Positions 730-1,982 of a stretch of 5,804 nt of DNA are shown piece by piece. This DNA is from a virus (taxonomy: Duplodnaviria; Heunggongvirae; Uroviricota; Caudoviricetes), in the IMG/VR virus record IMGVR_UViG_2698536355_000005. One strand, written 5' to 3'. The notes under the pieces were generated by a model that saw nothing but the letters and a program-made list of their open reading frames with translations, was not told where the DNA came from and did not search any database. How positions within the stretch are numbered: position 1 is the stretch's first letter; the number at the start of each line of letters is the position of its first letter. The position numbers were made by a program, and so were the translations under genes.

Positions 730-846
730 ATGCAGTTATTTTCGCCATCTTGGTATTGTGGAAATACCGACATCCATAGCTTTGGTGAGCTCTGTTCAGG
801 TGGCCAAATTCAGAAAACCATTACGGAGGAAGAAGGCGATGGCTAA
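730..846 (+). pseudogene. Short ORF (38 codons), possible remnant of the 3' end of ninF
   Basis: ATG 730 to TAA 844-846 translates [38 protein letters not shown]. The stop overlaps the ATG GCT AAA start at 839, and the acidic tail EEEGDG resembles the lambda NinF C-terminus as I remember it. No full-length ninF lies upstream (in-frame stop at 700-702). Weak; below the ORF-track size cutoff. Confidence 0.25.
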
Positions 847-1405
847 ACCAGCGCGAAGACGATGTAACCGTAAAAGAGAAGATTTAACTGTTAAAAGGAT
901 ATTTGAGTTACTAAGTTTCGATAAATCTACCGGGGTATTTAGATGGAAAGTTCCCACTCAGGGAAGGATAGCATTAAATAGTGTTGCTGGAACTTTTGAT
1001 TCCAACGGTTATTCAATGATCATGATAGATGGGCGTAGATATAAAACTCACGTCTTAGTTTTTTACATAACTCATAATCGTTGGCCTGCTGGTCAAATTG
1101 ACCACGTTAATGGAATTAGGACCGACAATAGGCCAGAAAATTTAAGAGAATGCCTGCCAATAGAAAATTCAAGAAATATAAGGATCCGAAAGAATAGCAA
1201 ATCAGGTTGCAGAGGGGTTACTTGGCACAAACGACAGAAAAAATGGAATGTTAGGCTAGGATTCCATGGCAAGAGTAAACACTTCGGATGCTTTGATGAT
1301 CTGGAGTTAGCGGTACTAGTTGCTGAAGAAGCCCGAGATAAGTATTACGGTGATTTTTCCGGCAACGAAAGGAGCACTTATGCGAATCTATCGAAGGAAA
1401 TGTAA
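839..1405 (+). CDS. HNH-family homing endonuclease with C-terminal AP2-type DNA-binding domain (NUMOD4-like + HNH + AP2)
   Basis: In-frame ATG at 839 preceded by SD GGAGGA (825-830, 8-nt spacer); stop TAA 1403-1405. The track extends the ORF to GTG 758, but that start has no RBS. HNH motif: [20 protein letters not shown]2-like segment: [55 protein letters not shown]4-like segment: GVFRWKV...[20 protein letters not shown]. Gene is visibly AT-rich compared with ninG/ninI/Q. Confidence 0.8.
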
Positions 1406-1982
1406 ATGTTGCAATGAATGGTTTATACCAAAATATCAAAATCAATATTGGTGTAATGAGATTTGTGGAACCAAGATAGCACTCGAACGACGAAGCAAAG
1501 AACGCGAAAAAGCGGAAAAAGCAGCAGAGAAGAAACGACGACGAGAGGAGCAGAAACAGAAAGATAAACTGAAGATTCGAAAACTCGCCTTAAAGCCCCG
1601 CAGTTACTGGATTAAACAAGCCCAACAAGCCGTAAACGCCTTCATCAGAGAAAGAGATCGCGACTTACCATGTATCTCGTGCGGAACGCTCACGTCTGCT
1701 CAGTGGGATGCCGGGCATTACCGGACAACTGCTGCGGCGCCTCAACTCCGATTTGATGAACGCAATATTCACAAGCAATGCGTGGTGTGCAACCAACATA
1801 AAAGCGGAAATCTCGTTCCGTATCGCGTCGAACTGATTAACCGCATCGGGCAGGAAGCAGTAGACGAAATCGAATCAAACCATAACCGCCATCGCTGGAC
1901 TGTCGAAGAGTGCAGGGCCATTAAGGCGGAGTATCAGCAGAAACTCAAAGACCTGCGAAATAGCAGAAGTGAGGCCGCATGA
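1380..1982 (+). CDS. ninG: NinG (Rap) recombination-associated structure-specific endonuclease; N-terminal ~30 residues differ from the lambda allele
   Basis: ATG 1380 with strong SD AAGGAG (1369-1374, 5-nt spacer); stop TGA 1980-1982. Translation [15 protein letters not shown]...[75 protein letters not shown]...[19 protein letters not shown]... matches lambda NinG over most of its length. Track ORF 1320 begins at an upstream in-frame TTG. Confidence 0.9.

Follow-up and report, generated by a model that had tools for sequence, protein, structure and literature searches.

A candidate HNH-AP2 homing-endonuclease cassette in the 5' end of lambda-type ninG of lambdoid prophages

The stretch of DNA analysed here (the window; 5,804 nucleotides (nt) of IMG/VR virus record IMGVR_UViG_2698536355_000005) corresponds to the early-right part of a lambdoid prophage, from nin to Q, and the 5' end of its lambda-type ninG (rap) gene probably harbours, with a probability that may be put at about 0.7, a free-standing homing-endonuclease cassette of the HNH-AP2 type. 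The net change is the replacement of 64 nt of lambda ninG by 596 nt, with junctions at positions 867/868 and 1463/1464. The endonuclease is fused in frame to the ribosome-binding site (RBS), the start codon and the first ten codons of ninG, and NinG is made from a Shine-Dalgarno (SD) sequence and an ATG located within the 3' codons of the endonuclease gene. A sequence-only reading of the same window had proposed that a cassette was inserted into the 5' end of ninG; the site was placed correctly, but the event was a replacement and not a pure insertion.

Alignment to endonuclease-free alleles, which that reading had suggested as a check, maps both junctions cleanly. In pairwise BLAST comparisons, lambda-type sequence occupies positions 822-867 of the plus strand (44 of 46 positions identical to HK544 and, over 826-867, 40 of 42 identical to lambda; E about 1e-15 to 1e-17). 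This retained segment comprises the last bases of ninF, the ninG RBS GGAGG (825-829), the start codon ATG at 839 and ninG codons 1-10, and, judging from this arrangement, it now drives translation of the endonuclease. Lambda ninG does begin with MAKPARRRC, as that reading had it: lambda NinG reads M(M)AKPARRRC and NinG of HK544, by translation, MAKPARRRC. The non-lambda cassette itself (868-1463, plus strand, 596 nt, 37.6% GC) was delimited by junction mapping, by an isogenic pair of contigs and by the diversity profile, both of which are described below. Lambda-type sequence returns, as had been anticipated, with the TGT codon at 1464 (155 of 157 positions identical), and the lambda-type ninG body continues on the plus strand to 1982 as the resident flank.

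The displaced stretch of lambda ninG, 64 bp in length, is AAACGATGAATGCCGGGAATGGTTTCACCCTGCATTCGCTAATCAGTGGTGGTGCTCTCCAGAG. At the left junction, the retained segment ends in CGATGTAA, which is unvarying in all contexts, and is followed by CCGTAAAAG. An imperfect 20-nt tandem repeat, AGACGATGTAACCGTAAAAG / AGAAGATTTAACTGTTAAAAG, lies over this junction (857-897, plus strand; Tandem Repeats Finder score 54, 80% matches). In addition, the endonuclease stop codon falls within the substitute head of ninG (AAATGTAA followed by A; 1392-1405) at the position homologous to the left junction in the lambda head (CGATGTAA followed by A), with TGTAA followed by A in both. The repeat and, separately, the coincidence of stop and junction may each be a trace of the original joining event or a product of chance. 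A seemingly different right junction in H51/L006 was rejected, as it represents an IS2 insertion in ninG.

The longest open reading frame (ORF) covering the endonuclease spans positions 758-1405 of the plus strand, with 758 being merely the most upstream in-frame GTG. The true start is likely the ATG at 839, which is preceded by GGAGG (825-829) and is used in the RefSeq/PGAP annotation (188 amino acids (aa), e.g. WP_001108084.1); annotation of the endonuclease should begin at this ATG. The ORF so defined (188 aa plus stop, 839-1405, plus strand) rests on the ORF list, the PGAP annotation and a match to PHROG 99 ('HNH endonuclease', E = 1.4e-71). In phages with an intact ninF, the ATG at 839 overlaps the ninF stop codon exactly as the native ninG start does. 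The first ~10 residues, MAKPARRRC(N), are derived from ninG, the HNH-AP2 core occupies residues ~16-174, and the last 14 aa are read into the new ninG start; homologues align to residues ~16-174 only. The body of the endonuclease gene has a GC content of 39% versus 50% for the ninG body. These features bear out the earlier description of the 758-1465 region as one in which captured ninG start signals and codons lead into an AT-rich HNH-AP2 gene.

The HNH (beta-beta-alpha-metal) core is located at residues ~68-113 (1040-1177, plus strand). Pfam HNH_3 matches residues 68-107 (E = 4e-11, 42.7 bits versus a cut-off of 24.8 bits), and residues D88-H89, N101-L102-R103 and N110 are invariant among 13 aligned sequences, namely, the endonuclease and 12 database homologues. 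In the AlphaFold2 model, with a predicted local distance difference test (pLDDT) score of 86.7, the beta-beta-alpha core consists of strands 86-89 and 102-105 and helix 107-113, and it is followed by three strands and a long helix. The best Protein Data Bank (PDB) match of the nuclease part in a Foldseek search was I-HmuI (PDB 1U3E; probability 1.00, 99 aligned columns, 17% identity, E = 8e-3). Residues ~123-173 (1205-1357, plus strand) are predicted to form an AP2-type DNA-binding domain. The Pfam AP2 match (E = 1.8e-4, 22.2 bits) is under the 33.3-bit cut-off, which several homologues pass, and a sequence-only PDB search by phmmer returned just a weak match to the AP2 protein WRI1 (E = 0.19). 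The assignment is made because the predicted structure backs the sub-threshold match: strands 127-130, 135-142 and 145-152 and helix 155-173, with pLDDT above 90, form an antiparallel sheet on one long helix, for which Foldseek retrieved the AP2 domains of AtERF1 (1.3 A over 51 columns), WRI1 and TEM1. The gene product is thus, by its predicted domains, an HNH_3 plus AP2 protein of homing-endonuclease architecture, with predicted endonuclease activity.

The nearest relatives outside a 99% identity cluster are ~44% identical and include annotated homing endonucleases of Jersey-like Salmonella phages and T5-like phages (lytic phages of Salmonella and E. coli), among others; no relatives between 99% and ~44% identity were found in 5.8 billion proteins. 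The endonuclease ORF is intact in 49 of the 50 copies compared. In the sole disrupted copy (L009), a 1-nt deletion truncates the endonuclease at codon 76. The enzyme is encoded by neither an intron nor an intein: no Rfam family, including group I and group II introns, reached threshold in the window, the endonuclease has its own stop codon, and ninG restarts in another frame.

The 3' end of the cassette brings a new SD sequence, an ATG and a head, and therefore a complete NinG is still encoded. The SD sequence AAAGGAG (1368-1374, plus strand, as read from the sequence) lies within the endonuclease 3' codons, 5 nt before the ATG at 1380, in accordance with the sequence-only reading. That reading had also placed the restart at 1380, which is correct, and after the endonuclease stop, which is not: the ATG stands 26 nt before the stop codon (TAA, 1403-1405) and the two ORFs overlap in different frames. 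The restarted full-length ninG/rap ORF (1380-1982, plus strand, 200 aa) scores 285 bits against Pfam PF05766 over profile positions 5-192 of 193 and matches PHROG 171; in annotation, the NinG start should be set at MRIYRRKC. A search for RNA structure hiding the new ninG start yielded none (z = 0.62).

The new head comprises 28 codons (1380-1463, plus strand). Its difference from the lambda head had been ascribed to recoding. A different head is indeed present, but only 14 of 29 aa and 56 of 97 aligned nt are identical, the region of the first cysteine pair has lost two to four codons relative to lambda, and the GC content is 28.6% (25% at third codon positions), compared with 50% in both the ninG body and the lambda head. 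The lambda-head cysteines are kept (C8/C10/C11 and C25/C29 versus C9/C14 and C28/C32 in lambda). Compared in this way, the head appears as a diverged foreign homologue and not as a synonymous recoding of the lambda sequence. Since its AT-rich composition is like that of the endonuclease gene, an AT-rich donor phage that supplied the two together is the most likely source, rather than mutation of the lambda head. The first ~35 ninG codons are a polymorphic hotspot, with the rest of the gene nearly identical, and three head types were seen. The third is found in NinG of the Shiga toxin 2 (Stx2) prophage Sp5 of E. coli O157:H7 Sakai (ECs_1201; L184 10101-10706), which differs also in the sequence at the right junction of the cassette and has in common with the cassette head the shorter CxxC spacing and the CGAAGGAAATG stretch. 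The only recurrent change in the cassette head occurs in four IMG/VR contigs (L179-L182), where TGG is altered to TTG at the equivalent of position 1449, replacing the conserved Trp of the QYWC motif by Leu.

The head was not detected apart from the endonuclease. A tblastn search of 50,697 phage records revealed no head lacking the endonuclease; 100% matches occurred only in endonuclease carriers, and all other phage heads showed 63-67% identity along the 41-aa query, 12 residues of which are shared. The head is present in 56 IMG/VR contigs, and in each of the 54 that extend over the cassette region the head is preceded by the cassette, the other two (L051 and L180) beginning too near the head to tell. 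Among complete E. coli genomes, a query with the head alone matched 537, the same number as the endonuclease query. Endonuclease-free phages with this ninG 5' sequence, which would speak against the sequence-only reading, are thus absent from the three collections (0 of 50,697 phage records, 0 of 54 IMG/VR contigs, and 537 versus 537 E. coli genomes). In a search for the donor of the head, an exact 38-mer and a degenerate pattern coding for CNEWFIPKY had no match in GTDB species-representative genomes, and in IMG/VR they retrieved only endonuclease-carrying copies.

The presence/absence survey that had been proposed revealed a sporadic distribution. The whole arrangement occurs in 4 of the 312 phage records matching the region, the remainder matching the flanks only. 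The cassette was found in 537 of 5,426 complete E. coli genomes, with about 500 others having an uninterrupted ninF-ninG junction, and in 56 IMG/VR contigs versus at least 120 endonuclease-free contigs. The exact endonuclease protein is encoded on at least 1,000 contigs, mostly of E. coli and some of Salmonella. The carriers include Stx1 phages and prophage Sp17 of O157:H7 Sakai (ECs_3504/ECs_3503). The same left junction is found behind the non-lambda DNA of the window, intact ninF (at least four alleles), NinX-NinF, methyltransferase-NinF and a partial IS30, i.e. in at least five upstream contexts. An empty site in the upstream context of the window itself was sought with a chimeric query of upstream DNA and uninterrupted ninG; no 100% single-piece match was obtained, and the best matches were endonuclease carriers with 89% coverage, in a search that joins pieces across the cassette. 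Place counts hint that carrier and lambda-type free alleles may co-reside in one O157 chromosome; the one co-resident ninG that was inspected, that of Sakai Sp5, has the third head type. In one genome (L005, NZ_CP024131.1, 1968-2716), the ninG-associated endonuclease is directly preceded by a partial 'HNH endonuclease signature motif' pseudogene, on either side of which a duplicated or split ninF is found; this resembles another endonuclease insertion, now decayed, within the same short stretch.

The cassette differs sharply in diversity from the DNA around it. In the 50 copies, it contains 20 variable sites in 596 nt (nucleotide diversity, pi, 0.35%), with one variable site in the 84 nt of the head, versus 102 variable sites in the 519 nt of the adjoining ninG body (pi 3.1%; Fisher p = 7e-19). 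The cassette is ~9-fold less diverse than DNA starting 5-9 nt away; on the right side, polymorphism resumes at 1468 and 1472, and on the left side, in the ninF contexts, variation sets in again only a few nt from the ATG. Next to the cassette, the ninG bodies of 39 sequences represent 21 haplotypes and are interspersed with endonuclease-free alleles, some of them being nearer to free alleles than to any other carrier (0 versus 11 differences in one case, 1 versus 5 in another). A natural isogenic pair is provided by contigs L026 and L127, which are identical over 1,410 nt on one side and over 1,079 nt (with one gap) on the other and differ by the exact replacement of 64 nt by 596 nt. Apart from this, the ~2.6 kb that they share differ solely by a 669-nt segment of L026 (5647-6315) between the primase/helicase gene and ninB, which carries a second HNH_3 plus AP2 gene (ORF 5875-6318, 147 aa, N-terminally short) whose product is 39% identical to the ninG-associated endonuclease and scores 33.4 bits for AP2. 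Lambdoid phages thus seem to host several HNH-AP2 cassettes. Altogether, five lines of population evidence, all drawn from sequence comparison, argue that the cassette has moved horizontally as a unit.

A route for such movement may be proposed. The cassette contains no promoter-like or terminator-like site of its own and therefore probably rides on the delayed-early PR/nin transcript; judging from its position, it would be transcribed with the nin genes after N antitermination. The carrier would meet an endonuclease-free lambdoid genome upon co-infection or upon induction in a polylysogen. The enzyme would then recognise the endonuclease-free lambda-type ninG, probably via the AP2 domain, and nick or cut the lambda-type head in or near the 64 bp that were replaced, and recombinational repair would copy the cassette from the carrier, which would itself be protected by the replacement of these 64 bp by the ~42% diverged, AT-rich head. 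Conservation on either side of the cassette extends over very few nt, which is compatible with a break made near the insertion site; such a geometry would recall that of introns and differ from that of T4 Seg and Mob enzymes, which typically cut at a distance. As a tentative extension, which is itself doubtful, the cassette may reside in its own target site in the manner of a mobile intron, with the substitute, cleavage-immune head and its own translation signals taking the place of splicing; in polylysogenic enterohaemorrhagic E. coli (EHEC), it could drive gene conversion between co-resident lambdoid and Stx prophages at induction, and the three or more ninG head types could be the footprint of an arms race between endonuclease and target.

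Several considerations weigh against homing. Cleavage of the endonuclease-free ninG, resistance of the new head and homing itself are inferred from sequence, and the placement of the target inside the replaced 64 bp is a guess. Enzymes of the I-HmuI type are nickases, and some of them cut both alleles. Free-standing endonucleases of T4 usually cut far from their own genes (PMC2988022). The HNH_3-AP2 subgroup has no characterised member closer than ~44% identity. The ratio of 12 nonsynonymous to 9 synonymous polymorphisms in the endonuclease gene suggests that constraint on the enzyme is weak. No donor genome with the endonuclease beside a native copy of the head was found among GTDB representatives, IMG/VR and the protein relatives. 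Many of the 537 carrier genomes belong to O157, O26 and O111, the clonal lineages of EHEC, and one ancient insertion followed by ordinary homologous recombination in the recombinogenic nin region and by clonal expansion of EHEC could leave the same pattern.

The alternative to which these last points lead is a passive module, in which the HNH gene and the linked head were joined once by illegitimate recombination and then spread by homologous recombination and host clonality, with the enzyme being inactive or irrelevant. The nin region is a classic mosaic hotspot, and the three ninG head types, the abundance of the cassette largely in clonal EHEC lineages, the apparently weak purifying selection on the endonuclease ORF and an endonuclease activity that is a prediction are all compatible with such a history. 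It is nevertheless considered unlikely, as the catalytic residues are preserved and the ORF is open in 49 of 50 copies, the ~9-fold step in diversity would, under passive recombination, need repeated crossovers right at both borders, and two independent HNH-AP2 cassettes are all that separates the members of the isogenic pair, an indication that the change was driven by the elements themselves.

Another explanation would grant the enzyme an activity but not a self-copying purpose: the nuclease may be kept because it damages or excludes lambdoid competitors with a lambda-type ninG head (marker exclusion), its own copying being a by-product. Homing endonucleases do give marker exclusion in T-even crosses (PMC2988022), EHEC strains hold many related lambdoid prophages, and expression, as far as position indicates, would occur only after induction, together with the other nin genes. 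This role is compatible with homing and not separable from it here, but in Sakai the ninG head of the co-resident Stx2 prophage, Sp5, is of another type, and as the primary reason for the cassette, competition seems quite improbable. A packaging function, in which the HNH protein would assist terminase in cos cleavage as in HK97, is effectively refuted by position and sporadic distribution. HNH proteins are widespread in phage packaging machines, as stated in passages of PMC12315714 referring to Kala et al. 2014, but the endonuclease gene, with ninF and ninG as its neighbours in the early-right operon, is remote from the terminase genes, its product combines HNH_3 and AP2 in the way of homing endonucleases, and most phages that are otherwise similar lack it, so that it cannot be essential for packaging. 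A homing-endonuclease cassette remains the preferred interpretation.

By its organisation, the cassette appears to be an element of the kind represented in T-even phages by free-standing HNH and GIY-YIG endonucleases, and to belong to the HNH-AP2 class. In T4, free-standing endonuclease genes have no promoter of their own and contain signals for expression of the gene that follows (PMC2988022). The ninG cassette resembles the intronless homing systems of T-even MobA/MobE and Seg (SegF, SegG) enzymes in being a promoter-less cassette at a conserved gene, with borrowed upstream signals and embedded downstream signals, in its sporadic occurrence among related phages and in the divergence of the carrier allele of the neighbouring gene (PMC2988022); the flanks of the T-even genes can be co-converted (PMC2988022). 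Unlike these systems, it is found in temperate lambdoid phages and lies inside the coding region of its target, of which it replaces the first ~30 codons, whereas the T-even endonuclease genes are intergenic and hundreds of bp from the cut site. The ninG endonuclease is also distinguished by its translational fusion to the first ten codons of the target gene, and its homing activity is predicted only.

HNH-AP2 genes are a recognised class of putative homing endonuclease genes, which have been counted in phages RB49, RB43, RB16 and JSE (PMC2993671). The ninG-associated gene shares with those of T4-related, Jersey-like and T5-like phages the combination of HNH_3 and AP2, at 40-44% identity over residues 16-174, and differs from them in its ninG-borrowed N-terminus and in the C-terminal tail that overlaps the next gene. 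I-HmuI of Bacillus phage SPO1 is intron-encoded and has other DNA-binding modules, while the ninG cassette contains no intron. In the lambdoid, P22-like phage epsilon34, gene 31 joins the N-terminus of eaE, in frame, to a putative HNH homing endonuclease (PMC2629481) and is similar to the present case in the in-frame fusion of an endonuclease ORF to the N-terminus of a resident gene. It differs in its location in the early-left operon and in its HNH lineage, which is related to Lactobacillus phage enzymes, and no replacement head is described for it. The mobE gene of phage Aeh1 is reportedly a free-standing HNH gene within nrdA, which is split into two functional pieces. As at ninG, a free-standing HNH gene is situated within a coding sequence and the host function is kept; in Aeh1, both nrdA fragments are retained and reassemble as protein, whereas at ninG the original head has been discarded and the cassette supplies a substitute. 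A review alludes to endonuclease 'transposition' events of the Aeh1 mobE sort (PMC2988022), and a survey of lambdoid phages mentions 'sporadic', 'apparently mobile' HNH genes (PMC12315714). The genes of the cassette have long been annotated as 'endonuclease' and 'NinG', and a literature search retrieved no description of the invasion of ninG, the replacement head or the population signature.

Much is known of homing endonucleases from lytic T-even phages, but far less from temperate lambdoid phages, whose mosaicism is usually ascribed to general or Red-mediated recombination. The cassette is abundant (~10% of complete E. coli genomes), has exact borders and is accompanied by natural isogenic partners with and without it, and its location in the gene set of phage lambda itself makes homing, specificity and co-conversion testable by standard lambda genetics. 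It exemplifies the harmless interruption of a coding sequence by a selfish gene that takes the start signals and supplies a replacement head. If the enzyme is active, it would provide a concrete mechanism for directed gene conversion among co-resident EHEC prophages, and if the arms-race reading is true, the element would be a contributor to the mosaicism of Stx phages. Its main value is that of a common, sharply bounded and tractable candidate homing system in lambda-type phages of pathogenic E. coli.

The DNA upstream of the cassette is of mixed origin. Positions 1-104 of the window are the end of insertion sequence IS1, 100% identical to annotated IS1 ends in thousands of plasmids. The IS1 junction of the window was found in no complete E. 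coli genome of the collection, the best chromosomal matches beginning at position 105. The IS1 end truncates a minus-strand gene, of which only the N-terminal part is left (ORF 100-357, minus strand); its counterpart in the Stx1 phage AU6Stx1, gp35, is 590 aa long and has no Pfam domain. Positions 105-821 are AT-rich (35% GC) and have no relation to lambda. In its longer form (L001 810-3100), this non-lambda block contains the 590-aa minus-strand ORF and ~500 nt more, and it displaces ninF to ~17 nt before the ninG ATG. The block was seen only together with the endonuclease and never beside an uninterrupted ninG, and the endonuclease occurs also without the block. A putative remnant of an IS3-like transposase on the minus strand (~420-560) was rejected, as no Pfam family backed it even at E <= 10. 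Within the AT-rich DNA upstream of the cassette, positions 592-644 form a hexanucleotide microsatellite, (TATTTC) x 8.8; elsewhere, match spans over this region are 1122, 1158 and 1164, i.e. they change in steps of 6 nt, which suggests variation in copy number.

Downstream of ninG, the window carries ninH, the phosphatase gene ninI, a Q gene of lambda type, a gene for a 252-aa membrane protein in which Pfam recognises no domain, and the 5' part of a gene for a nanS-p-type esterase. When the entire window was scanned for Rfam families and tRNAs, nothing was matched, and it thus contains neither an intron nor a tRNA cluster. In Stx phages, tRNA genes and stx are located between Q and nanS-p. In the window, this interval (3449-4984) is occupied only by the 252-aa multi-pass membrane protein (3685-4443), and the same layout from Q to nanS-p is present in Sakai Sp17, where the corresponding gene is annotated as 'membrane protein' (ECs_3500).

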